From NCBI GenBank assembly GCA_963809485.1, contig CAWEJX010000013.1, forward strand, positions 1 to 47,232: a DNA stretch of 47,232 bases. The letters are read 5' to 3'. Under the pieces are notes generated by a model, which saw only the letters and a program-made list of their open reading frames with translations, did not search any database and was not told where the DNA came from. This DNA comes from an uncultured Acidobacteriota bacterium. Lineage in GTDB: Bacteria; Acidobacteriota; UBA6911. Shown here one piece after another: positions 24,600-43,810 of the stretch. Each line of letters begins with the position of its first letter. Position 1 is the stretch's first letter. The position numbers were made by a program, and so were the translations under genes.

Positions 24600-27064
24600 T
24601 TATGCCGTCACGAGATTGATCAGCCGCCCTTTCACGTAAAACGCCTTTAGTATCTTTCTGCCGTTGATCTGGCGCAGCACCTTTTCATCGGATAAGGCGA
24701 TTTCTTCGGCTGTCTTATCGTCAACATCGGACGGGGCCTCGATCCTCGCCCGAACCTTGCCGTTGACCTGTACCACCAGCACAATATTTTCCTCGGCAGC
24801 CATGGCTTCATCCAACTCCGGCCAGGACTGCTGATGCACGCTGTAGGCGCCGCCCAGCCTTGCCCATAGTTCTTCCGCGCTGTGAGGGACAAACGGCGCC
24901 ATAAGCAGTACGTAGGTTCGCGCAACATCTTTGAGTTCGTGTGTCGTGCCGGCCTTGTGACGATAGACCGACATGGCATTCAGAAACTCCATTAAAGCGG
25001 CAATTGCGGTATTGAATTTGAATGCCTCCAGATCCTCGGTGACCTGGCGCACCGTGCGATGCAGCTTCCTGGTCAGAGTCCCCGGGTCCGTTCCGGACTC
25101 GCATTCCGAATCGATGATTTCATTAACAAAACGCCAGACACGATCGAGGAAGTGTTTGGCGCCTGCTATCCCCTCTTCTTCCCAGACCGTGTTGCTTTCA
25201 AAAGGCGCCATGAACAGCAAAGACAATCTCAGTGCGTCGGCCCCATGCAAGCGGGCCATCCCGTCTGGGGTGACAACATTCGCCTTTGACTTGGACATGC
25301 GGGATATTTCGCCCGTCTCGGGATTGCGGGCATGCATGATGCCCTGGCTTCGCAAAACGGGGAACGGCTCTCGAAAGGGCACAATGCCCGCGTCCGCCAT
25401 CACCTTGGTCCAGAAACGCGCGTACAGGAGATGCATCAGCGCCTGCTCGGCGCCGCCGACGTACAGATCCGGCGAACCCCATACCGACAATGCCTTCGGA
25501 TCGAAAGGACCCTCTGCGTACTGCGGGCTGACAAAGCGCAAAAAGTACCAACTCGAACAGGCAAAGCCGTCCATGGTGTCCGTCTCACGCTTCGCCGGTC
25601 CTCCGCACCTGGGGCACGCGGCATTCACGAATTCCGGCACGTTGGCCAGCGGAGAGCGTCCGTCTTCACGCGGCATCCATTCCTTGATGTCCGGCAACAG
25701 AACGGGAAGCCTTTTCAGCGGCACCGGCACGATGCCGCAGGGACCGCAATACACGATAGGGATCGGCGCTCCCCAGTAGCGCTGGCGCGAGATCAGCCAG
25801 TCGCGCATGCGGTAACGGGTAACACGCCTGCCGATGCCCTGCTTTTCCATCCATGCCGCGATGGACATCCTGGCTTCTTCGGACTGCCATCCGTCCCACG
25901 GACCGGAGCGGACCATAGTGCCGGGTTCCGTGTACGCCGAGTTCTGTGGCTCGCCATTCCAGCCGGACGGGGCTATTACGACACGAACAGGAATATTGTG
26001 ACCTCGAGCAAAAGCAAGATCCCGGCTGTCATGGCCCGGCACGCCCATCACGGCTCCGCTTCCATAGCCCATCAGAACATAGTCCGCGGTATAGACAGGC
26101 ACGCGTTCGCCATTAACTGGACTCAGCGCATAGGCGCCCGTAAAAACTCCCCCGTGTCCGGATTGCGACCGGTCCACATCGCTTCGCCTGGACGTTTCTT
26201 CGCAATAGGCTTCCACTGCAGACTTGAATTCCGGCTTTGTAATATGCTTTAACAACGGGTGCTCCGGCGCCAGTACCGCAAAGGTCATGCCGAATATGGT
26301 ATCGATGCGGGTTGTGAAAACCGTCAAAGCATCCCCCGTGCCTTCTATTTCCATGCTGAAATTCACGCCTTCGCTGCGTCCTATCCAGTTCCGCTGCATG
26401 GCAAGCACATGTTCCGGCCAGTCCAGCTTTTCCAGGTCGGCCAGCAGTTCGTCGGCGTATGCGGTGCTGCGGAAGTACCACTGCTCCAATCCACGCTTGT
26501 GGACCTGGCCGTGACAGCGCCAGCAGCCTCCATGCTCGACCTGCTCATTGGCCAATACCGTTTTGCATGCCGGACACCACCACTGGAGACCGGATGCCCT
26601 GTATGCCAGTCCGCGTTCATACAACAGGAGAAAAAACCGCTGCGTCCAGCGGTAAAACTCCGGCAAACTGGAATTGATCTCTCTTCCCCAGTCATAGGAA
26701 CAGCCGAGGATCGTCATCTGGCGCCGATAGTTTTCAGCATAGCGCAAGGTGGTGATTCGTGGATGAAGCCCTTTCTTGATAGCTTCATTTTCGGCCGGCA
26801 GGCCAAAGGCGTCCCAACCCATCGGGTGCAGGACCGCACAACCTTTCATCCGATAGTAGCGCGACAGGACGTCGGACGGCACGTAATTGCGGCCGTGACC
26901 GACACTCAGACCATCACCTGAGGGGTAAGGGAAGAAATCCAGGCAATAGTAGGTTTTTTTATTTGCGGGATCCGGCGTGTGATAAAGATTGGTTTCTTTC
27001 CAGCGTTGTTGCCACTGGGCTTCAATAGCATGCGGGTTATAGGTTGTTAACTGATGAGCCCCAT
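24600..27064 (-). CDS. leuS: Leucine--tRNA ligase (start disrupted by an apparent indel in a G run near 27060)
   Basis: Frame extends upstream of 26882: YNPHAIEAQWQQRW...FPYPSGDGLSVGHGRNY. Also GWDAFGLPAEN, DWLISRQRYWG, RMSKSK, VQVNGKVR. ATG 27064 follows GGGAGG but is out of frame. Confidence 0.92.
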
Positions 27065-27350
27065 TGATTTGTTCCTCCCGGGTATTTTACAGCTGCTATT
27101 GTCGACAATCCCGTTCAGTGAATTCGGGATTCACATGTTTTAAGGATAACCGAATCGGGCTTGATTGGCAAGGCCAGTGAAAGATAACCGGACGGAAGTC
27201 ACGGGTTGGCCCGCTTTGCCGGACTTAATTGCGGAATAAGGAAAGCTGCGCCCTGCTTTTTGTGCTCTATGCCGTAGCCTATGAGGATTAGACAATAGGA
27301 AGACAGGAAACTTTGAAAAACCGCCGGGATCGAATGTGCCGGTTGCTCCA

Positions 27351-28523
27351 CTAATGATGGAAAAGTCTTACGCCCGAAAAAACCATCGTCATGCCATGGT
27401 GATCACAGGCGGCAATTACCTCGGCGTCGCGGGCAGAGCCGCCCGGCTCGAGCACGTAACGCACACCGCTCATTGCCGCCCGGTCAATAGAGTCGCGGAA
27501 GGGGAAAAAAGCGTCCGAGCCCAGAGTGACGCCCCGGAGGGTGTCGAGCCAGAGGCGCCGCTCCTCCGCGGTCAGTTGTGAAGGGATTTCGGCAAAAATT
27601 TCGCTCCAGGCTGCTTTCTCGGTTGGAGTGACATCAGGCTGGAGGAATTGATCCACTGCATTGTCGCGGTCGGGACGCTTAATGCCAGGTTTGAAGGGCA
27701 GGTCTAGCACGCGGGGATGCTGGCGCAGGTACCACAGGTCCGCTTTCGTGCCGGCCAGGCGAACGCAGTGAACGCGCGATTGCTGTCCCGCGCCTACGCC
27801 GATGGTCTGGCCGTCGAAGGCATAGCAGACCGAATTGGATTGCGTGTACTTAAGCGTGGTCCAGGCGACCAGCATATCGCGTACGGCGTTTCCCGGCAGA
27901 TCCCTGTTCCTCGTGACGATGTTCCTGAAATCATCCACCGTCACCGGACGGTCGTTGCGGCGCTGTTCGAAGGTGATGCCATACACTTCGCGCGATTCCA
28001 GGGGACCCGGTTCGTAGCCCGGGTCCATTTGCACGACGACATACTTTCCCTGTTTCTTTTTCGCCAGGTGCTCGAGGGCTCCGGGCTGGTATCCGGGCGC
28101 AACAACGCCGTCCGACACTTCGCGGGCGATCAGCCTGGCCGTCGGAAGGTCGACCGTATCCGAGAGGGCAATCCAGTCTCCAAAGGAGGACATCCGGTCC
28201 ACACCGCGGGCCCGGGCGTAGGCAACAGCAAGGGGTGAAAGCTCAAGGTCGTCTACGAAATAAATCCTTTTCTGTATCTCCGACAGCGGCACCCCAACGG
28301 CCGCACCCGACGGGCTGACATGTTTGAAGGAAGCGGCGGCCGGAAGGCCGGTGGCCTGCCCAAGCTCCTTGACCAGCTGCCAGGAATTGAGCGCGTCCAG
28401 CAAATTGATATAGCCAGGTGTGCCAGCCAGAACCGTGATGGGCAGCTCGCCTGTTTTCCTATAAACACGGGCAGGATTCTGGTGTGGATTGGCACCGTAG
28501 CGAAGGAGCATTTCCTTATTCAT
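27351..28523 (-). CDS. purH: AICAR formyltransferase (short PurH type lacking the N-terminal IMP cyclohydrolase domain)
   Basis: LRYGANPHQ, GYINLLDA, SFKHVSP, KYTQSNSV, GAGQQSR, SDAFFPF, RLFHH. Confidence 0.85.
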   Translation of the reverse strand: MNKEMLLRYGANPHQNPARVYRKTGELPITVLAGTPGYINLLDALNSWQLVKELGQATGLPAAASFKHVSPSGAAVGVPLSEIQKRIYFVDDLELSPLAVAYARARGVDRMSSFGDWIALSDTVDLPTARLIAREVSDGVVAPGYQPGALEHLAKKKQGKYVVVQMDPGYEPGPLESREVYGITFEQRRNDRPVTVDDFRNIVTRNRDLPGNAVRDMLVAWTTLKYTQSNSVCYAFDGQTIGVGAGQQSRVHCVRLAGTKADLWYLRQHPRVLDLPFKPGIKRPDRDNAVDQFLQPDVTPTEKAAWSEIFAEIPSQLTAEERRLWLDTLRGVTLGSDAFFPFRDSIDRAAMSGVRYVLEPGGSARDAEVIAACDHHGMTMVFSGVRLFHH

Positions 28524-28660: not shown

Positions 28661-29287
28661 TCAGGTCAGGCTATTCTTCCTGGCCCCATGCTCTTCCACC
28701 AGCAGCTGCAAAGCTTCGTAAGGCTGTGCGCCAACGAGTCTGTCTTCATGGATGATGAAGGTGGGAACGGCCGTGACTGATTTCTCTCTCGCGAGGTTCC
28801 AGTCCCCATCGACGGCGTCCCTGAATGCTCTTGTTGCGAGGATTTCAGCTGCCTCATCACCCGGAAGTCCAACCGAAGTGGCTAACTCCACCAGGACCGG
28901 GATTTTCGCTATGTTCCTGCCCTCCACAAAGTAGGCCTTAAACAGGGCGGTATGGATTTCATCGCCCCTGCCTTTTGAATCACCCCAAAGCCCCAGTTCC
29001 TGGGCAAGGCGGCTGTTATAGATTTTGTCGCTTCCCCGGAAAGGCACACCGAATTTTTCCGCAGCGGTGCTGAGCCGAAGCCGCATTTCCCGGATATCTA
29101 CGGAACGGCCTGAAAAAAGCTCCTCGATGGATATTCCCTCTTGAGGCGTTTCAGGATGCAGCGGAAATGCCCGCCATAGGACCGCAATTTCATATTCCTT
29201 TTTGATTTTTTCAATACGCCCGGTAATGAAATAGCACCAGGGTCAGACATAATCGGAAAAAACTTCAAGGGTTAACGGCTGCGGCAT
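28661..29287 (-). CDS. DsbA/FrnE-family oxidoreductase, predicted selenoprotein (UPWC)
   Basis: ATG 29287 (GAGGGAGG RBS) gives MPQPLTLEVFSDYV-TGA(29243-29245)-PWCYF...FPLHP, in frame with ORF 28661-29086 (VTAVPTF, GAQP). Confidence 0.85.
29209..29231 (-). promoter_or_regulatory. Candidate bacterial SECIS hairpin
   Basis: UUUCAUUAC-CGGGC-GUAUUGAAA. Loop starts 20 nt after the UGA. Confidence 0.55.
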
Positions 29288-29745: not shown

Positions 29746-30960
29746 ATGTCCCCAAACAACACTCGGAGAGAATTTGTAAAATCGGCGCTTGCGGGAGTGA
29801 CTGCAGGCGTCATGGGAAACGCATTTTCCAGCCCACCAGCCCCGGCAATGGCCCAGGAAAGAATTGAGAGGCAGGCTCAGCGACCCGGAGTGATGCCGAG
29901 GGAGCTTGCCGGGAAAGTACAAACCGTGCTGGGCGTGATGGACGGTAAAAACCTGGGAATAGCCAGCTGTCACGAACACATTCTCTGGGATCTGTCTGCC
30001 ATTTTCAGGGAACCGGATGCTGCACGAGAGAGAGGACTGGCGCATCAGCCCGTTGGAATGGCCAACCTCCATTGGGTTCGTGCCAATCCGCACTCCAACG
30101 TGGACAACCTGGTTCAGACCGATGAAAAGCTGGCCATAGATGAGCTTATGCCCTTTAAATATGCAGGGGGCAGCACGATCGTTGAACTCACCCAAAATGG
30201 CATGTCGCGCGATCCCGTGGGCCTGACGCGGGTTGCAAGAGCCACCGGACTTAACATAGTAATGGGCAGCGGCTACTACATTGACAGGTCGCATCCCCGG
30301 GATATGGACTCCAAAACCGAAGAAGATATCGCCCGGGAAATTGTGAATGATATCGCCGTCGGAGCGGGAGACACGGGCATCCGTTCCGGCATCATAGGAG
30401 AGATCGGCTGTTCTGCACCTTTGACGAACAATGAACGGAAAGTATTGCGGGCCTGTGCCATGGCGCAACGACGGACCGGCGCTCCCGTGAACATTCACCC
30501 CAGCATGAGCGATGAGCTGGTGCTGGAAGACATAAAAATATTAAAAGACGCCGGAGCGGATCTCACACGGATTGCCATCAGCCATGTTGATGGATTCGAA
30601 TACAGTCGGGCCACTCGACGCAAGATATTGGAGGCAGGCTGCTATGTTTCCTATGACGGTTTTGGGCAATTAGTGTATCACTTCCGCGTAATGGATCGTG
30701 TTTTGAATGGACACAGCGATATCCAGAGAATTGATGAAATTATTCAGATGATCGAAGAGGGGCATATCAACAAGATTCTGATAGCCCAGGACTATTGTTT
30801 CAAAGCCTGCCTGGCTGCCTATGGGGGCTATGGATATGCTCACATATTGAACAATCTCGTACCTTTCATGCGAATCAAGGGGATGACGGAAGAGAAGATA
30901 CACACGCTCCTGGTTGAAAACGCCCGGAAGTTCCTTGAGTTCGCGCCGGCCCAAGCCTAA
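29746..30960 (+). CDS. Phosphotriesterase-family amidohydrolase with twin-arginine-like leader
   Basis: VQTVLG, HEH, GIIGEIG, IHP, SHVD, AQDYC, YGGYGY. N-terminus TRREFVKSALAG...AMA. Confidence 0.85.
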   Translation: MSPNNTRREFVKSALAGVTAGVMGNAFSSPPAPAMAQERIERQAQRPGVMPRELAGKVQTVLGVMDGKNLGIASCHEHILWDLSAIFREPDAARERGLAHQPVGMANLHWVRANPHSNVDNLVQTDEKLAIDELMPFKYAGGSTIVELTQNGMSRDPVGLTRVARATGLNIVMGSGYYIDRSHPRDMDSKTEEDIAREIVNDIAVGAGDTGIRSGIIGEIGCSAPLTNNERKVLRACAMAQRRTGAPVNIHPSMSDELVLEDIKILKDAGADLTRIAISHVDGFEYSRATRRKILEAGCYVSYDGFGQLVYHFRVMDRVLNGHSDIQRIDEIIQMIEEGHINKILIAQDYCFKACLAAYGGYGYAHILNNLVPFMRIKGMTEEKIHTLLVENARKFLEFAPAQA

Positions 30961-31312
30961 AAGATGTTTTCCCGTTTTTAAGGAATAGGGTCCCATCGAG
31001 AGGATCTTACAGCTGGAAACGGATGCATCTCCTGGACATCTTGCGCTCGATGTTGCAGCGGAGGCTCTACGGCTGCACGCCCCTCAAAGGCGCCTGGTCG
31101 CGACCGAAAAAAGATGCAAGAAATTTCATACGCAATCAATATCTTTGCACCTTCTTGAACCGCGGAATATCGAATAACGAATGATGAATTCCGGGGTCTT
31201 CGACATTCGATATTCAATATTCAAACAGATACCCCCTCACCGCCATTGCGGGTGGCCCCCCGCAATGGATTGGGCTTCCGATAGGAATGCCGTTCACTCC
31301 GTCTTGATGATC

Positions 31313-32554
31313 TCATTTTGCAGATTGCACAGTCCGGATGTCGTCGATGCCATAGCGAATCATTGCTAGCCGCTCGAGGCCCAATCCCATTCCCACGGCT
31401 GTAAAGCGTGAGGTATCGACTCCGCAATGCCGGATCAGGTCACGCCGAAATTCGCCGCATGCGCAGACCTCCTCGTATTTTCCGGGTTCCCCAACCGAAA
31501 GCATCCAGCATCTCTCGACCAGTTCAAGCTTGGCTATTTCCCACCGTATCGCCCTGCCAGGGAGAAGCCGCTGCATCAAATCCGTAGCGAGTGCAACCAG
31601 ATCCCATTCCCGCGCATCGGCGCCCATGATACAAAGGTCGAGCTGGTGGAACATTTTCAGGTGCCGCTGATCTTCTTCGTCATCCCGCCACACACGCCCG
31701 GCGGTCATAATGCGGCATGGTTTGTCCGGATGTGCTTTTAGATAGTCCAGGATTGCGGAGGTAGTCTGCGTGCGCAATGCGCGGTTTTTGTCGAGATCGA
31801 TTCTCATATAGCCTTCATCCAGATCGAAAAGCTCCTGCTCTCCGCTGCGCTCCATAACCTCGTCACCCGCGACAACCCGAAAATCCGGCAGCAGGTTTCG
31901 GATATCCGACCAGACCTCAAATACGCGATTCCCCGGTATAGTGACAAGATCCGGACGGTTGAGCAGATCAATGATCTTTTTGGAGAATCCTTTTCCAATT
32001 GGAGGTTTAGCGTCCATTTTTGCCATCTCCTCTCTCAAGGCCTTTCTGGCCCGCTCCAGTCGTTTCTTTGCCGCGTCGACCGATATACTGAGCATTCCGG
32101 CGATCGAGGGAATGCCTAGGCCGTAGAGATAGTGCCATGTAAGTACTTTCCTCGCCGGCGATTCCAAAAGGAACAGGCCCGTATAGACCATGAGATCCTG
32201 TTTCATGGAACTGTCGTCCACGGACGTATTCAGCTGTGCCGATTGGAGCAGGTCCTTCTCACGGAGTTCGTCAAGGGAGGACACCAGGTACTTCCGTTTC
32301 CGCCGGAGTTCGTCAAGGCAACGGTTGATGGCCATGCGTTTGAGCCAGGACTGGAACCTGCTCGCCGCCTGCAGTTGCCCCATTCCTCGAAAGGCTGCCA
32401 GAAAAACATCCTGGGCTGCGTCCTGAGCAAGGTCCGGCCGCCTGAGATAGGCCATGCAAATCGCGAAGACATAATCCTGATATCTTTCCACAAGCCTGCC
32501 GTAGGCTGCGGTGTCCCCTTTCCTCGATTTTTCCACCAAGGGCGTAGGATCCAT
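31313..32554 (-). CDS. ECF sigma factor fused to a C-terminal PheRS-alpha-like (class II aaRS catalytic) domain
   Basis: Residues 1-180: AQDAAQDVFL, FQSWLKRMAINRCLD, sigma4 IAGMLSISVDAAKKRLERARKAL. Residues ~250-413: LRTQTTS, AGRVWR...HLKMFHQLD, EVCACG, GMGLGLERLAMIRYGIDDIR. Confidence 0.85.
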   Translation of the reverse strand: MDPTPLVEKSRKGDTAAYGRLVERYQDYVFAICMAYLRRPDLAQDAAQDVFLAAFRGMGQLQAASRFQSWLKRMAINRCLDELRRKRKYLVSSLDELREKDLLQSAQLNTSVDDSSMKQDLMVYTGLFLLESPARKVLTWHYLYGLGIPSIAGMLSISVDAAKKRLERARKALREEMAKMDAKPPIGKGFSKKIIDLLNRPDLVTIPGNRVFEVWSDIRNLLPDFRVVAGDEVMERSGEQELFDLDEGYMRIDLDKNRALRTQTTSAILDYLKAHPDKPCRIMTAGRVWRDDEEDQRHLKMFHQLDLCIMGADAREWDLVALATDLMQRLLPGRAIRWEIAKLELVERCWMLSVGEPGKYEEVCACGEFRRDLIRHCGVDTSRFTAVGMGLGLERLAMIRYGIDDIRTVQSAK

Positions 32555-32654
32555 GGATTGCGCTCTTACGAATATGACGAATCATCCGGCAACCGGTGAC
32601 ACAAAATAAAGCGAAAATGGAAAGATTTATCCTATCCTGATTTTCTCAAGAGAT

Positions 32655-33048
32655 GTCAGGTACCTCCGGCAAAGCCGGAGGCCTGAAAGATTTGAACCGC
32701 TCAAACCGGTTGGACTAGTTACGCCGGTCTTGAACGATGACTTACGCGGGCAAAAGCCGATGAGGCGCTTCCGATCCCCGCAGGGGCCAGCTCTCCGCGC
32801 TGGACAGTTTTCTGCGGCGGCACTGTGGCAAGCGCCGTGCGGCAAGGAGATGAAGGATATGAGAAACCGGGCGTTTGCCACAGTGCCGCCGCAGAAAACT
32901 CCATCGGAAGCGCCTCATCGGCTTTTGCTCGCCGACCCTCGCCGAACAAATCGGCGTATGTCAGCGCTTTTATCAGCGTTTCTCAGCGTTTCAAAATACG
33001 GAGCCGTCAAACTCATTGAGTGCCCCGGCAGAGCCGGGGATTTACCAA
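32655..33048 (+). mobile_element. Longest copy of the composite non-autonomous repeat element (hairpin end, nested inverted repeat, TCAGCG module, hairpin end)
   Basis: Left part matches 1708-1845. Inverted repeats 32746-32775/32903-32932 and 32806-32836/32870-32900. TCRGCG at 32951, 32961, 32973 and 32983. Ends CCCCGGCAGAGCCGGGGATTTACC. Confidence 0.65.
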
Positions 33049-33077
33049 TGTAATTATGGAAGGAAGGGGAAGGGCAG

Positions 33078-34829
33078 CTATCTGAATGGAATATCCACAA
33101 CCTTTGACAGGACCGCGTCCTGCAGGGCCCGGATCTCCGTCTGCAGCCGCGCTATAAGGGAGGACTCCCGCACAATCTCCGTTTCGGATTGGTCCCGTCG
33201 CTTCATCTCGACACCGCCCTTAGCCAGCGACCGGGCTGAGACCGTTATTCGGATGGGGATGCCGATCAAATCCGCGTCGTTGAACTTCACACCCGGGCTT
33301 TCATTGCGGTCGTCGTAAAGAACCTCAATTCGCGCCTCCCGGAGCGCCTCATAGATTCGGTCGGCTGCCTCGGGCCGGCCGAGCGAGGTCAGGTGCACAT
33401 CATAGGGTGCAACCGATATCGGCCACACCAGGCCCTTGTCGTCATGATGCTCTTCCGCGACGCAGGCAAGCAGCCTACCGGAACCGATGCCGTAGGATCC
33501 CATCACGATCGGCTTCTGCGATCCATCAACGGCGAGGTACATTGCACCGATTGCGGCCGAATAGCGGGTGCCAAGTTTGAATATGTTGCCCACCTCCACT
33601 CCGCGCGAGGTTGCCAGCCTTTCTCCGCATTCAATGCACGCGTCGCCGTCACCCGCTGCCGTAATATCGGCAATGACTGTGGGTTGATAGTCACGAACGA
33701 TGTTCGTATTGAGCAGGTGATACCCTTCGTCGTTCGCGCCCGCAACCAGGTTCGGCGAAGCGGATATGCCGTCGTCGACGATCACCTGGATACCGCGCAA
33801 ACCGATGGGCGACCCGTATCCCGGGACTGCGCCTGTCGCAAGAATTTCTTCTTCGGTAGCCGGACGCAGCCAGGCTACCCTGGCGGCGTTCGCCAGTTTC
33901 GTCTCGTTCACCTCCATATCGCCACGCACTATCGCGCAGATAAAGTCCTCGTGTTCGCCCGTATCTTCCTGGCGCCCCGCGGTCATGAACACGGCTTTGG
34001 CTGTCTTGCGCTTCGGCACATTGAGCCAGTTCGCCAATGTCTCTATTGTTTTGCAGCCGGGCGTGGCTACTTTTTCGACCGGCTTCATTTCTTCAGCGGG
34101 AGCCGGCGGCTTGGCAAAGGACGCAATCTGCCGGTTGGCCGAATACCCGCACCGGCTACACAGAACCAGCGTATCCTCGCCAATGGGCGTGAGATACATG
34201 TATTCATGTGCCAGGCTTCCGCCCATCATTCCCACGTCGGAGCTTACGGCGATAACCGGTAGGTCACAGCGATGAAAGATATTGAAGTAGGCCTGGTAGT
34301 GCGCCCGATACTGACGGTCCAATCCCGCTTCATCCGCGTCCAGACTGTAGGAATCCTTCATGGTAAATTCGCGCACGCGTATGAGGCCCGCGCGCGGCCG
34401 CGCATCGTCGCGGAACTTTGTCTGGATGTGATAGACCAGCTGCGGCAGCTGGCGGTAGGAATGGATTTCGGTCCTGCAGAGGTCGGCTATAACCTCTTCG
34501 TGCGTCATCGCCAATACCAGGTCGCGATCCTTGCGGTCTTTGAATCGTGCCATCTCCGGCCCGATGGAATACCAGCGTCCGGTAGCCTGCCATATCTCCG
34601 CAGGATGGGCTACGGGCATCGTCATCTCCTGTCCGCCGATGGCGTTCATCTCATCGCGCAGGATATTCTCAATTTTGGTCAAGGACCGGCGGGCAAGCGG
34701 CAGGTAGGAGAACAAACCCTGGCCGAGCTGGCGAACAAAGCCCGCGCGCAGCAGCAACTGATGGCTGACAGCATCGATATTGGCGGGGGATTCCCGCAAC
34801 GTTGAACCGAAGTGGCGTGAAAGCCGCAA
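33078..34829 (-). CDS. proS: Proline--tRNA ligase (bacterial type with editing insertion)
   Basis: SHQLLLRAG, THEE, KFRDDARPRAGLIRVREFTMKDSYS, EVGNIFKLG, MGSYGIG, GVKFNDADLIG. Confidence 0.97.
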   Translation of the reverse strand: MRLSRHFGSTLRESPANIDAVSHQLLLRAGFVRQLGQGLFSYLPLARRSLTKIENILRDEMNAIGGQEMTMPVAHPAEIWQATGRWYSIGPEMARFKDRKDRDLVLAMTHEEVIADLCRTEIHSYRQLPQLVYHIQTKFRDDARPRAGLIRVREFTMKDSYSLDADEAGLDRQYRAHYQAYFNIFHRCDLPVIAVSSDVGMMGGSLAHEYMYLTPIGEDTLVLCSRCGYSANRQIASFAKPPAPAEEMKPVEKVATPGCKTIETLANWLNVPKRKTAKAVFMTAGRQEDTGEHEDFICAIVRGDMEVNETKLANAARVAWLRPATEEEILATGAVPGYGSPIGLRGIQVIVDDGISASPNLVAGANDEGYHLLNTNIVRDYQPTVIADITAAGDGDACIECGERLATSRGVEVGNIFKLGTRYSAAIGAMYLAVDGSQKPIVMGSYGIGSGRLLACVAEEHHDDKGLVWPISVAPYDVHLTSLGRPEAADRIYEALREARIEVLYDDRNESPGVKFNDADLIGIPIRITVSARSLAKGGVEMKRRDQSETEIVRESSLIARLQTEIRALQDAVLSKVVDIPFR

Positions 34830-37209: not shown

Positions 37210-39016
37210 ATGAATGAGCCAATGCATCGATTCAAATACACAAAACTCACCAAAGAACAGGTAGGCCAAAAAGCTTGAGCCGACGGCCGCCGGCCCGAAA
37301 TGCGCATCGGAGTTGTCGGACGTTCTTGCCGGAAAGTCATTGAAAATCGTGACCGATAACGGCCCCGTTTTGAACTACGTCTTTAAAGACAAGCGCAAGC
37401 TTACGCTGGCTGAGGGCAACGGAGCTCCCGTTGAATCGGGATACGGCGCACTGACGCTTAAGCAGTTGGTTTTCTTCTCCCACATGATCCCCGGAACCCA
37501 GAGAGGCTTCAATGTTTTCGTCGATCAGGATACGAATCTTGCCACGGTCTTTGAAGTGTGGCTCTGCAGCGGCAAAAAAGAAGTAACGATGTCCAAAAAG
37601 GAATTCACGATCGACGACAGGGAGGTCCAGCGCCAGATCTATTTCGGCTATGTGGACGTTCCGGGCAAAGAGGTGCCGAAAAAGCGGCATCACACGACCA
37701 ACAGGCTCGAAGGCACGGGCATGTACTGGAAACAGGACACGGGAATCGAGACCCTGGACTTGTATCCTTCGGTCTCCTCCTCGAACTTTGTCGAACTCAC
37801 CCGGCATGCCGACGACCTCAGCTACTGCGCCCCTTCGGACTACGTAATGGTCAACGACAACCTGTTTATCTATGAAAGAACGGAATGCGAATTCTCCGGC
37901 ATTATGACTATGTACGCCCTCGACCTGTTCACGGAAACCCAGGCGGGCATGCGCCTCGGCTTCAATGAAAAGGACGAGTTGGAATACTACATGTTCCGGG
38001 GAACGGGCAAAGTTGTCGGCAACCTGACCTCACTGGCGCCCTTCGACGAGCACGGCGAAAAGATGAATCTCGGCCAGACCAACGCACCTCAGCCGAACCA
38101 GCCGGCGCCCACGCCTCCCAAAGGCCAGAGAATCGTGTACCGCCCGGCAAGAGATTTCAGGAACATGACTGAAGAAGAGGTCCATCAGGCTGCCGAAAAA
38201 AGCACCAGGACTTTCACCGGCGATGCCAACACCCCGCAGGAACAGGGGGGGATGGGAGGCAACGCGCTGCCGTTCAGCGACCTGCTGGTCGGCAAGGAGT
38301 TCACTCTCCGCTATGACAATGAAGGCCCGGTCTGGGATTACAAGGTCCTCGACATGTACAATCTTCAGTGGCGGAAACACGGCGATACTCAATGGCAGAA
38401 AGAGACCTACCGTGCCTTTGAGGCCGATGAAAAACTGGTATTTTTCGCCCACATTCACAGCGGAAGCAGGCCCCGCACCTGCAGGAGAATCGCCCTGGAC
38501 CTGACCAACGGCCTTACCACCTGCGTTCTCTCCAGGATGGGCACGAAGTATTACGGGAATGAGGTTTCCTATCGAGCCCTCTTCGGCGCAGCCGAAATGG
38601 CAGGAGTGGAGGCTCCGCAGTACGTACGTCATGAATTCACCGACGAACTGGTCGGCCGCGGATTCACACGGTCCTATTCCGACCAGATGACTTCCATGCA
38701 TCTCTACACCACGCCCCATTCCTCGTCCTGGACAATTTACACGGCAAACCAGACTCTGGGCATGCAGTGGTGCGCCCCGGCCATGTATGTAAAACTCCGT
38801 CCCGGAGTGTATATCTTTGATCTGGTTGAGGAAGGCTGCAACGGCGCGGAGACCTGTATCATCGAAAATGAAAAAACGAAGCGTGCTTGCGGGTTCGGCT
38901 TCTCCGGCAGCGAGAGGGGAGTAGGTCTCAATACCATCGGAGCGATCGCGCGCGACATCGGAAGGTACGACATCCGACAATTCTTCGGACCGAAGGCGAG
39001 AGTGAAAGGAGCATAA
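37210..39016 (+). CDS. MoaF-like domain repeat protein (one frameshift near 37270)
   Basis: Internal duplication (DVLAGKSL / DLLVGKEF; HHTTNRLEG / HEFTDELVG) resembling MoaF N/C beta-barrels. ATG 37210 follows GAGGAG and joins ORF 37313 if one A is removed from an A5 run. Confidence 0.55.
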
Positions 39017-39843: not shown

Positions 39844-39884
39844 CAAGGGGGCGGGGAGGCATTGCAGGTCTCTCCGCCCCCCTT
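39844..39884 (+). terminator. Strong GC-rich hairpin downstream of the SnoaL-like gene
   Basis: CAAGGGGGCGGGGAGGC...GTCTCTCCGCCCCCTTG inverted repeat. No U-tract, so terminator function is uncertain. Confidence 0.35.
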
Positions 39885-40140
39885 GCCCTGCAATGCACTC
39901 TGTCCGGCTGAAGCCAAAAAGGCAGTCCGGCTCCCCCATGCAATTGGGGAAACTCGTTTCCATGGAAATTTCCCAAGCCGGATATCGCCGGCAGAATCCC
40001 GGTTCCCTGCTCCAATGAATTCAGTCATTCGATCCATGAACCCCGGCCATCGCGAATCCGCTTCCGGTGAGAGTCAGGGCATATCCAGCGCTGCATGGAA
40101 ATATGGAAATCTGTCGTATATGATTTTGTATATAGGAGGA

Positions 40141-41016
40141 ATGCCAGTGAAAAATAAATACACGCGACGTGAAGCTCTGGAACTGGGGCTGGGGGCAGTT
40201 GCCCTGGGAGCATCGAGTGCGGCGATTTCATCCGCACAAACAACCCAAAAACCTGTTCCCGGAGAGGGGAATCCTGTACCTGCATTGAGCGAGTTCAATA
40301 AGTACGGGGAGGAACTGGAAACATCCTTGCTTCTGAGGACTTCCCCTGTGGCCGTAAAAATGCTGGAGAGGGAAGCGGACATCCCGAAAGGAGCTTTCCG
40401 TCCGAAAAGGGACGGAGGCTATCATATCGCCCAGTGCCAGGCCTTTGGCATGTCGCGGCGGGAAGGTAAAACCGTTGCCATGTTGAAGGAAGATCATTGG
40501 TGTCCGACGGCTCTCATCTCTTATGGAATGGTGCGGAAGCCGGATTCTATGGCGATGTATGGAGAATCTTTTGACAGCTTTGAAGTCGGGAAATATATCG
40601 GTGTGGTTACGGCGCCTCTAAAGAGCGCAACGTTTATTCCGGACGTCGTTCTTATATATTCGAATCCCGCGCAACTCAGGGGATTGCTTATGCCGATGAT
40701 GTATGGCGGTGGCGGGGCTCAGGTCAGCACCTATTTATTCCTTCCATCCTGTGCGCACAGCGTTGTGGCTCCCATGAAAACGGGAAAATACAGCGTCGTG
40801 CTTCCAGACCCCGGGGAATACCAGAGAGCTCTGACTCCGGAGGAAGAAATGATGTTCGCGGCGCCGCGGGACAAGATGCCGGCATTTATGGCAGGCTTAA
40901 AAAGGGGCGGGAAATTGTATTCCCATCGGGATCAATACATGTCCATGCACCCGGATTTTGAACAGCCGCAATTTTATAAAGATATGTTTAAGGGCTGGGG
41001 ACTGGATTCAAAATAG
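40141..41016 (+). CDS. DUF169 family protein with twin-arginine-like leader
   Basis: LRTSPVAVK, CQAFGMSRR, DHWCP, PDVVLIYSNPAQ, EEEMMF. ATG 40141 follows AGGAGG; YTRREALELGLG leader. Confidence 0.75.
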   Translation: MPVKNKYTRREALELGLGAVALGASSAAISSAQTTQKPVPGEGNPVPALSEFNKYGEELETSLLLRTSPVAVKMLEREADIPKGAFRPKRDGGYHIAQCQAFGMSRREGKTVAMLKEDHWCPTALISYGMVRKPDSMAMYGESFDSFEVGKYIGVVTAPLKSATFIPDVVLIYSNPAQLRGLLMPMMYGGGGAQVSTYLFLPSCAHSVVAPMKTGKYSVVLPDPGEYQRALTPEEEMMFAAPRDKMPAFMAGLKRGGKLYSHRDQYMSMHPDFEQPQFYKDMFKGWGLDSK

Positions 41017-43060: not shown

Positions 43061-43810
43061 GTGCCCATGATAACTCCTGCAAAAAACGATTGGAGCATCC
43101 TGGCAAAACTAGAGCTCGACAACCCGCCCGTAGGCGTAAAATATTCGTCCAAGCCTCTGCGGGGGATTCCTAAGCTGGATAAAAAGATGTCTCTCTGTGA
43201 GATGCTCAGAGCCGCTTTCGAAGGAAACTCATTCTACGCCGCTGCGAAGTATCATGCTTGTGAGGCTGGATTGCACGTATTAGGACAAAATGAGATTGCG
43301 GAACAATATCTCAGTGGCGCCTTTGGTGCAGGATTGGAGGTTTTCCGTGACAAGCGCACTGCCCGCAAACTGTATGAATACATCCCCAGGATACCGGAAG
43401 GAGCGGTGAAATATGTCGCCCTGGCTCCTCTCAGCCGAATGGCGTTTGATCCCGACCTCCTGATTATATTGGCCGATACAAGGCAAGCCGAGATATTGCT
43501 CCGGGCTGTGAGTTACGGAACCGGGGAGATGTGGCACAGCCGCTATTCGAGTGCCATCGGTTGCGCCTGGCTTTTCGCTTATCCGCACCTGAATGGAGAG
43601 ATAAACTTTATCGCCACCGGTCTAGGTTTCGGAATGAGGCGCAGGAAATTGTTTCCGGAGGGACTGCAACTCATTTCGATTCCTTGTGATCGGCTGTCCT
43701 ATATGCTGCAAACCCTGCGGGAAATGCCCTGGGTTCCTCGCCCATACCAGGCGGGAGGACCGGAGTATGTGAAGCGCCTGCGCATAAAACTTGGCTTGGA
43801 CAAGGCGTGA
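43061..43810 (+). CDS. DUF169 family protein
   Basis: PPVGVK, LCEML, HACEAG, FDPDLLII, SAIGC. Confidence 0.75.
   Translation: MPMITPAKNDWSILAKLELDNPPVGVKYSSKPLRGIPKLDKKMSLCEMLRAAFEGNSFYAAAKYHACEAGLHVLGQNEIAEQYLSGAFGAGLEVFRDKRTARKLYEYIPRIPEGAVKYVALAPLSRMAFDPDLLIILADTRQAEILLRAVSYGTGEMWHSRYSSAIGCAWLFAYPHLNGEINFIATGLGFGMRRRKLFPEGLQLISIPCDRLSYMLQTLREMPWVPRPYQAGGPEYVKRLRIKLGLDKA

Follow-up and report, generated by a model that had tools for sequence, protein, structure and literature searches.

An extracytoplasmic function sigma factor fused to a PheS-derived catalytic core in an uncultured Acidobacteriota bacterium

Analysis of a 47,232-nucleotide stretch of DNA from an uncultured Acidobacteriota bacterium (GTDB lineage UBA6911; assembly GCA_963809485.1, contig CAWEJX010000013.1, positions 1 to 47,232), hereafter the window, showed that positions 31313-32554 of the minus strand form a single unbroken open reading frame (ORF) with an ATG start and 413 amino acids (aa), in which an extracytoplasmic function (ECF) sigma factor is fused to a catalytic core derived from PheS, the alpha subunit of phenylalanyl-tRNA synthetase (PheRS). 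The same architecture was found in several independent sequence collections, a conserved promoter motif preceded most of the fusion genes, and no conserved partner gene accompanied them. We give about an even chance to the reading that the protein is an ECF (group 4) sigma factor with a PheS-derived regulatory domain, acting as a one-component regulator, positively autoregulated and responding to a ligand of the ATP or adenylate type.

Domain organisation and predicted structure

A preliminary description of the window had reported sigma2/sigma4 regions and class II aminoacyl-tRNA synthetase (aaRS) motifs in one 413-aa ORF, and the Pfam matches, all above their cut-offs, bore this out. Sigma70_r2 (PF04542) matched residues 21-88 (E 2e-15; 56.8 bits, cut-off 24), Sigma70_r4_2 (PF08281) residues 131-173 (E 1.2e-8; 34.9 bits, cut-off 25.7) and Sigma70_ECF (PF07638) residues 4-178 (E 5e-6; 26.9 bits, cut-off 21.1). 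In the C-terminal half, the class II aaRS core family tRNA-synt_2d (PF01409) matched residues 254-409 (E 7.3e-30) with 104.7 bits against a cut-off of 19.8. NCBIfam TIGR02937 (ECF superfamily) scored 72 bits on the N-terminal half (cut-off 42.9), and the Sigma70_r1 and Sigma70_r3 families were absent from the Pfam matches of the 413-aa protein at E up to 1. The strings quoted earlier, GRVWR...FHQ for motif 2, GLGLERLAMIRYGIDDIR for motif 3, and LELVERC, were all present in the translation. The extension after sigma4 comprised residues ~181-413, well beyond the >50 aa by which the consulted part of PMC7826278 recognises an extension.

The closest solved structures were SigW, SigH and RpoE for residues 5-177 and the PheS of E. 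coli and Salmonella for residues 254-408 (E 1e-19). The PheS-like core begins near residue 195, not 254; its catalytic domain opens with HP(L/V/I), preceded by a junction motif (LLxRPxL...PxNPV). From 45 family sequences, AlphaFold2 gave a model with a mean pLDDT (predicted local distance difference test) of 86.9, in which only the sigma2-sigma4 linker (88-115) was under 50. It had the PheS fold, with a root-mean-square deviation of 1.9 A over 218 columns from E. coli PheS chain 6oz5_A in Foldseek. A complex prediction of the sigma part (1-185) with the PheS-like part (186-413) scored 0.00 and, being without controls, speaks neither for nor against binding. The sequencing runs listed for the sequence included none of RNA, and their shares were small; reads from four runs covered the gene in short pieces only, mostly over motif 3 and over a repeat element upstream of the gene, and were uninformative.

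Residues kept, changed and lost in the PheS-like domain

Residues were mapped to the numbering of E. coli and Salmonella PheS from an alignment with solved structures (Table 1), and counts were taken over 54 members of the family. The roles of active-site residues and loops (FPF loop, h2 loop, A76-recognising Asp) follow the consulted part of PMC8599791. The motif 2 arginine R290 was kept in 48/54 members, the AMP-contacting histidine H298 in 38/54, the adenine-stacking phenylalanine F302 in 46/54 and Q304 in 44/54. The amino-acid-binding acid is an aspartate (D306) in the window protein, as it is in the host's own PheS, and position 306 held D or E in 52/54. In motif 3, E394 occurred in 47/54 members, with D in 6 more, and the arginine R395 in 46/54; both arginines occurred together in 44/53 complete sequences.

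The preliminary description had stated that the phenyl-stacking FPF loop is replaced, and L-E-L-V-E-R-C indeed aligned with FPFTEPS of E. coli PheS; the equivalent of A294 is Gly. A 21-row alignment was made of 16 fusion rows, sampled from the 54 family sequences, and 5 canonical PheS rows. The h2 loop (N-F-x-x-L-N-x-P-x-x-HPARD) and the C-terminal tail of canonical PheS were each missing in 16/16 fusion rows, and an FPF-like loop was kept in P0123 and P0125 only. According to the consulted part of PMC8599791, the h2 loop rearranges upon substrate binding and its Asp recognises A76 of the tRNA. The N-terminal coiled-coil tRNA-binding domain (PF02912) had no match in the window protein, whose N-terminus is filled by the sigma domains; in the part of PMC3275996 consulted, this coiled coil is needed for tRNA binding and the PheS subunit alone lacks aminoacylation activity. 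The pheS equivalog model TIGR00468 scored 103.9 bits, under its cut-off of 237.45, and a motif 1-like strand was retained. A normal operon of pheS (338 aa) and pheT lies on another contig of the host (C16), and no second pheT was found in the host genome, in keeping with the earlier statement that no pheT adjoins the fusion gene.

The fusion domain is not a phenylalanyl-tRNA synthetase. Because the elements for tRNA and phenylalanine are lost and the motif 2 and motif 3 arginines and the adenine-stacking phenylalanine are kept, canonical tRNA charging by the domain is unlikely and nucleotide binding is plausible. The most family-specific feature, foreign to canonical PheS, was the full junction motif F-x-x-K-I-I-x-L-L-x-R-P-x-L-x-x-x-P-x-N-P-V, in which L197 occurred in 54/54 members and P201 in 52/54. 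Within a close clade (10 sequences, 49-88% identical), the mean pairwise identity was 0.67 for the core and 0.69 for sigma4; the PheS-like core appears to be under purifying selection. A separate observation concerned the host PheS (L001 1498-2514, minus strand, contig C16), which, like several other bacterial PheS in the sample, has four cysteines (C-x-x-C...C-x-x-C) inserted after the FPF loop and before motif 3; no fusion domain had this insertion.

Occurrence and origin of the fusion

A word-indexed search found PF01409 together with PF04542 in 18 further proteins, at 88% to 31% identity, encoded on contigs from ENA, JGI, NCBI and Logan. When representatives clustered at 50% identity were searched exhaustively, 40 proteins came up at E up to 1e-30, and among the 150 cluster representatives listed, 38 aligned over nearly the whole query. 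The ESM Atlas contained three clusters (152, 92 and 57 members) with an identical domain set, the commonest phyla being Acidobacteriota and Myxococcota. In a DNA-pattern scan of metagenome contigs, at least 10 fusion loci were found among the 120 loci listed, nine of them full-length (L017, L035, L057, L089, L099, L104, L109, L117 and L130) and one a fragment (L125). The degenerate pattern was less specific than intended and most of the other loci were ordinary PheS. The family alignment (A1) held 45 full-length members and left out fragments, near-duplicates and the longer variants P0129, P0133 and P0142.

The fusion family is rare in genomes. Among 40 relatives, 24 of them of the same genus, nothing beyond canonical PheS was found. 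In 400 other genomes sampled across the phylum there was no match to residues 131-413 at E up to 1e-17, and the family profile matched five of them by the sigma part only (profile positions 1-202); both of these searches scored 4 to 6 candidates per genome.

The preliminary description had allowed for a chimeric assembly junction. The assembly has 21 contigs and an estimated contamination of 7.3%, which would suit an artefact of assembly or gene calling joining an ECF gene to a pheS fragment. The frame is unbroken, many independent contigs, drawn from several sources, show the architecture at 22-88% identity, and the junction motif is itself conserved, with its invariant leucine. The independent occurrences refute the artefact, and its remaining probability is negligible.

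A quick maximum likelihood tree (LG+G4) was computed from 116 catalytic cores, with the Shimodaira-Hasegawa-like approximate likelihood ratio test (SH-aLRT) as the only support measure. The rows comprised 53 fusion domains, 43 bacterial PheS, 12 longer forms and 8 monomeric forms, after 49 rows with <80% profile coverage had been dropped; the canonical rows were a biased sample from the pattern scan and the tree was unrooted. All 53 fusion domains fell on one side of a branch with an SH-aLRT of 92, and P0123 and P0125, which keep the FPF-like loop, were nearest to the canonical enzymes. On account of this branch and of the placement of P0123 and P0125, the tree is in keeping with one fusion event, after which the pocket relaxed.

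A relic of a fusion gene was seen in an Acidobacteriota metagenome-assembled genome record (L015 6986-7396, plus strand), where residues 1-108 were 78% identical, the likeness stopped abruptly after residue 108 and the frame stopped at 136 aa. Its promoter and 5' region were the same as in the window, and a glucose-1-phosphate adenylyltransferase-like gene came next. Two other kinds of protein were considered and set aside. Stand-alone PheS-like proteins of 226-276 aa (nine read of 14) started inside sigma4 or the linker and were taken as fragments, not split forms. Proteins of ~390 aa that begin with a PheS core (L030 and L048 among them) carried FPFT(D/N)PS and an extra C-terminal domain and were regarded as unrelated to the fusion. 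Eight such loci (L030, L048, L056, L058, L060, L062, L081 and L119) encoded ~360-420 aa with the PheS core and a conserved ~110-aa C-terminal domain; by eye they resembled monomeric (mitochondrial-type) PheRS, and they formed a fully supported clade in the tree.

Promoter region and partner genes

The motif GTCAC-N16-(C/T)GTC, with constant spacing, was present in 9/11 upstream regions of fusion genes, 46-64 nt before the approximate start, and also preceded genes of a distant clade (~31% identical to the query). Shuffles of each upstream region contained GTCAC-N16-YGTC in ~1% of cases, and elsewhere in the fusion loci there was one copy only, inside the leuS coding sequence of the window (26899, minus strand, in the stretch encoding VGHGRNYVPS). 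The 60 nt before the ATG, which include TGTCACC-N15-CGTC, were identical between the window and L015 at 56/60 positions, against 83% for the coding DNA and 70% for third codon positions. No sigma-70-type promoter was found in window positions 30900-33100. The two loci without the GTCAC motif (L057 and L117) shared GGTA(A/T)CC...GG(G/C)TC(C/T)TTA, a type of motif also seen by eye ahead of 4/5 related sigma genes with other extensions. The ECF41 signature given in the consulted part of PMC3426412, TGTCACA-n16(+/-1)-CGTC, is close to the bipartite promoter of the fusion genes; the window sequence lies within this published tolerance, and promoter likeness alone does not assign a group. Because an ECF-type promoter stands upstream of 9/11 fusion genes, the data point to a working, autoregulated sigma factor. 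The sigma part also looks intact from its invariant residues Q48, W70 and R165, listed with the sigma regions in Table 1, and from its TIGR02937 score.

No conserved neighbour was found by Pfam analysis of flanking genes in the window and 10 other loci. When the ORFs of 11 loci and the window (without the L104 fusion ORF) were compared all against all by BLASTP, the only matches were among the fusion genes. Flanking genes in the other loci included Glu/Leu/Phe/Val dehydrogenase, TonB, TonB-dependent receptor, MacB-like permeases, tRNA methyltransferase and DUF2911, among others. An anti-sigma gene had been reported as missing, and no anti-sigma Pfam domain was found in the flanking ORFs of the window or of the 10 other loci; anti-sigma factors are varied and often match no Pfam family, as noted in the consulted part of PMC7826278.

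Related sigma factors and comparison with known systems

The nearest sigma relatives without a PheS-like domain, with identities in the sigma part of up to 48%, carried other modules in its place, namely TPR, TPR with an adenylate/guanylate cyclase, CarboxypepD_reg, ankyrin repeats, and GNAT with DUF3471. P0129 joined ECF, PheS-like and GNAT domains, and its sigma part was 48% identical to that of one GNAT form. This form was represented in two Acidobacteriota genomes (L139 1441-3312 and L140 277-2196) by an ECF part, ~240 unassigned residues, GNAT and DUF3471; in another genome, L138 859-2148 combined ECF with ankyrin repeats. Domain shuffling has thus taken place on one sigma lineage, and such variety is the pattern expected of interchangeable sensor modules.

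ECF sigma factors with a C-terminal extension, such as ECF41, likewise have a sigma2-sigma4 core and a long fused domain. The consulted part of PMC7826278 names TPR, SnoaL-like, Cys-rich, DUF1835 and transmembrane extensions, and in the parts of PMC8999054 and PMC7826278 consulted the extension is proposed to control the sigma factor through conformational change or protein contact, the former for ECF41 and ECF238 (PMC8999054). The extension of the fusion is not SnoaL, TPR or Cys-rich but a class II aaRS core. ECF41 has a SnoaL-like extension and a COE neighbour (carboxymuconolactone decarboxylase, oxidoreductase or epimerase), whereas the fusion has no SnoaL match in Pfam, an extension of ~220 aa matching PF01409, and neighbours of the proS and phosphotriesterase-family kinds. 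Its sigma part showed no particular closeness to ECF41; its nearest solved structures are SigW, SigH and RpoE.

With PheS the fusion shares the catalytic fold, motif 2, motif 3, the LRTQT strand and the FHQ motif; PheS has in addition its own coiled coil, h2/HPARD loop, FPF loop, C-terminal tail and adjoining pheT, all of which the fusion lacks. NF051887, the 'PheS-related mystery ligase SrmL', matched residues 254-412 with 99.8 bits against a cut-off of 300. SrmL is likewise PheS-derived and obscure in role, but it stands alone, without a sigma domain, and the word SrmL was not found in the literature searched.

BirA offers a parallel outside the sigma factors. It is an active class II-like adenylate-forming ligase with a protein substrate and a DNA-targeting winged helix, and it acts as a repressor; its enzyme-bound adenylate is the signal that switches transcription control, coupling adenylate formation to DNA binding. 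The fusion resembles it in joining an adenylate-forming fold to a DNA-targeting domain and differs in being a sigma factor, and we know of no sequence relationship between BirA and PheS. The HisRS-like domain of GCN2 and HisZ are aaRS paralogues without charging activity that serve as regulatory sensors, derived from HisRS and not PheRS. GCN2 binds uncharged tRNA, which is unlikely for the fusion, and to our knowledge neither GCN2 nor HisZ is fused to a sigma factor.

Full-text literature searches found no sigma/aaRS fusion, and the main texts of PMC7826278 (the ECF re-classification) and PMC8999054 (a 2022 review of non-canonical ECFs) do not contain the words tRNA or synthetase; a group listed but undiscussed in the supplementary tables of PMC7826278 is still possible. 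The preliminary description, too, knew of no PheRS-like ECF extension.

Regulatory interpretation and alternatives

In the mechanism we propose, the sigma2-sigma4 core would recognise GTCAC-N16-(C/T)GTC, the promoter of its own gene included, and the PheS-derived core would serve as a built-in regulatory module. Occupancy of the old active site would alter the conformation or oligomeric state of the domain and thereby free or block the sigma core, much as ECF41 and ECF238 are proposed to be switched by their extensions. The most likely ligand is ATP, either by itself or together with a small carboxylate or an aliphatic amino acid, perhaps as an enzyme-bound adenylate, and it would sit in the remodelled, more aliphatic pocket. 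The one-component reading had been put forward in the preliminary description and fits the absence of a conserved neighbour, the conserved promoter, a C-terminal conservation similar to that of sigma4 and the sister sigma factors with other modules. Among the ligands suggested there, tRNA is the least likely and is disfavoured by the loss of the coiled coil, the h2 loop with its A76-recognising Asp and the beta subunit.

Several observations weigh against this interpretation, in which regulation of the sigma factor by the PheS-like domain, the direction of control and the binding of a nucleotide are inferred. The promoter motif was defined post hoc on the same sequences, and related genes accounted for 7/9 of its sites; six of these genes were 62-78% identical among themselves, and the seventh (L104) was outside the comparison. 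A regulon search in the host genome found none, the motif being no commoner than chance: GTCAC-N16-YGTC occurred 24 times genome-wide against ~92 expected from equal base frequencies, with few intergenic copies, and the strict form TGTCACC-N15-CGTC occurred three times, once as the gene's own promoter and twice inside ORFs. The full-length model had confident domains but a pTM (predicted template modelling score) of only 0.57, so that the packing of the domains against each other is unreadable. Amino-acid pocket positions varied widely, the F248 equivalent being Y in 20, F in 18 and L in 5 of the 54 members, with others besides, which would mean no single conserved ligand or none at all. Nine of the 53 complete members (P0148 and eight members of two sub-clades) lacked one or both catalytic arginines and retained the fusion; because of this loss, canonical ATP binding cannot underlie the role of the domain in those nine. 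The window protein has R210 where 52/54 members have Pro (NPV to NRV), and the window copy might be impaired or the base an error.

These nine members make a serious rival of a ligand-free pseudoenzyme, in which the domain would stabilise or auto-inhibit the sigma core, either as a structural or steric extension or by offering a surface for protein contacts, the class II motifs being kept only for the fold. The highly variable pocket residues and the sister sigma factors with pure protein-interaction modules (ankyrin, TPR) in the same position agree with it. Retention of the arginines in 44/53, the phenylalanine in 46/54 and the histidine in 38/54 members at only 22-35% identity, however, exceeds what a fold usually needs, and we give the pseudoenzyme a modest probability. 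Similarly modest is the probability of a sigma factor gated by an adenylate, independently of tRNA, from ATP and an aliphatic or hydrophobic amino acid or a related carboxylate. The adenylate would be held in the fused domain because no tRNA acceptor can dock there, and the adenylate-bound state would switch the sigma factor on or off.

Two further explanations are possible, have less support than the pseudoenzyme and are both improbable. The domain could dock to PheT or PheRS in place of the alpha subunit, with PheT serving as an anti-sigma factor and sequestration or release depending on the assembly state of PheRS. Its derivation from the partner subunit of PheT, the retained motif 1-like strand and the single pheT in the genome would suit such docking, but the canonical coiled coil and C-terminal tail of PheS are missing and no extra pheT-like gene accompanied the fusion in any locus. 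An active ligase, which would aminoacylate tRNA or another acceptor or make free adenylate, with the fusion coupling enzyme and regulator, could draw on the intact motifs 2 and 3 of the window protein, on the GNAT acyltransferase domain that P0129 adds after the PheS-like core and on the existence of another PheS-related ligase in NCBIfam, NF051887. It is countered by the score far under the pheS equivalog cut-off, by the inactivity of PheS alone and the missing tRNA-binding coiled coil (PMC3275996, in the part consulted), and by the missing h2 loop, which recognises A76 and rearranges on substrate binding.

Genomic context and other features of the window

The features of the gene and its flanks are given in Table 1. 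The fusion gene lies between proS on the same strand (33078-34829, minus), directly upstream, and a convergent phosphotriesterase-family gene; leuS (24600-27086, minus) lies ~4.2 kb downstream. These positions agreed with the preliminary description, and the link to proS and leuS that it hinted at was rejected. No other fusion locus had an aaRS neighbour, a repeat element with >200 copies in the host genome takes up ~400 of the 523 bp between proS and the fusion gene, and the nearness is therefore taken as a local coincidence.

Table 1. Features of the fusion gene and its flanking regions in the window
Feature	Position	Strand	Remark
Whole gene, 413-aa ECF sigma / PheS-like fusion (P0001)	31313..32554	-	Stop codon included
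Sigma region 2, residues 21-88	32291..32494	-	Q48 and W70 invariant, 54/54 members
Sigma region 4.2, residues 131-173	32036..32164	-	R165 invariant, 54/54 members
Junction motif, residues 190-215, FxxKIIxLLxRPxLxxxPxNPV	31910..31987	-	Family-specific
PheS-derived class II catalytic core, residues ~195-413	31316..31972	-	
Motif 2, residues 286-306	31637..31699	-	R290, H298, F302, Q304, D306
E. coli equivalents of the motif 2 residues			R195, H202, F206, Q208, E210, in the same order
FPF-loop equivalent, residues 343-349	31508..31528	-	LELVERC for FPFTEPS
Motif 3, residues 388-407, G-M-G-L-G-L-E-R...	31334..31393	-	R395 is the motif 3 Arg; G388 aligned with E. coli A294
Candidate ECF-type autoregulatory promoter, TGTCACC-N15-CGTC (GTCAC-N16-CGTC)	32576..32601	-	46 nt 5' of the ATG
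Unique 5' region, start codon to repeat element	32555..32654	-	
Hairpins 3' of the stop, between the convergent fusion and phosphotriesterase genes	31165..31270	-	Possible terminator; no T-run

The repeat element (32655-33057, ~400 bp) contained nested inverted repeats with 31-nt and 30-nt arms. In the host genome, blastn-short gave 986 high-scoring segment pairs and a per-base coverage of 200-340, with near full-length copies at 94-97% identity, and in metagenome contigs from soil and wetland its first 46 nt were very deeply covered. The element resembles a miniature inverted-repeat transposable element (MITE) or a repetitive extragenic palindromic (REP-type) element.

As listed, the leuS ORF begins with GTG (26882) and misses ~50 residues at the N-terminal end of the Pfam model. 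No stop codon interrupts the frame from there as far as 27086, and the added stretch reads as a normal LeuS N-terminus without containing any ATG, GTG or TTG; the start is likely an ATC seven nt after GGAGG. A purH-like ORF (27351-28523, minus, 390 aa) matched AICARFT profile positions 74-311 only and had no MGS/IMP cyclohydrolase part, and the adjoining DsbA-like ORF (28661-29086, minus, 141 aa) matched profile positions 63-187 only; both may be truncated or variant. Two DUF169 (COG2043) paralogues (39862-41016 and 43061-43810, both plus) lie ~2 kb apart near a MoaF-domain protein (37313-39016).

Significance

ECF sigma factors are among the main signalling devices of bacteria, and the forms with a fused sensor are the simplest to study and engineer. 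Databases already hold the fusion proteins under automatic sigma-factor names and the sequences are not new, but the architecture and its properties appear to be undescribed in the literature searched and to represent a new type of ECF extension. With an extension derived from an aaRS, these sigma factors would gain a new class of input domain, and re-use of the PheRS core as a transcription sensor would be a new fate for a translation enzyme. The system is compact, consisting of a single gene with its own promoter, and recurs in Acidobacteriota and Myxococcota. If the adenylate-gated form proved true, transcription initiation would respond to amino-acid and energy status directly and without tRNA, a sigma factor would follow the logic of BirA, and bacteria would have a counterpart of the HisRS-like sensor of GCN2. 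If amino acids or ATP are sensed, the family would provide a possible orthogonal ligand-controlled sigma factor for synthetic circuits and, in its hosts, would link metabolic state to promoter choice by a route not recognised before.

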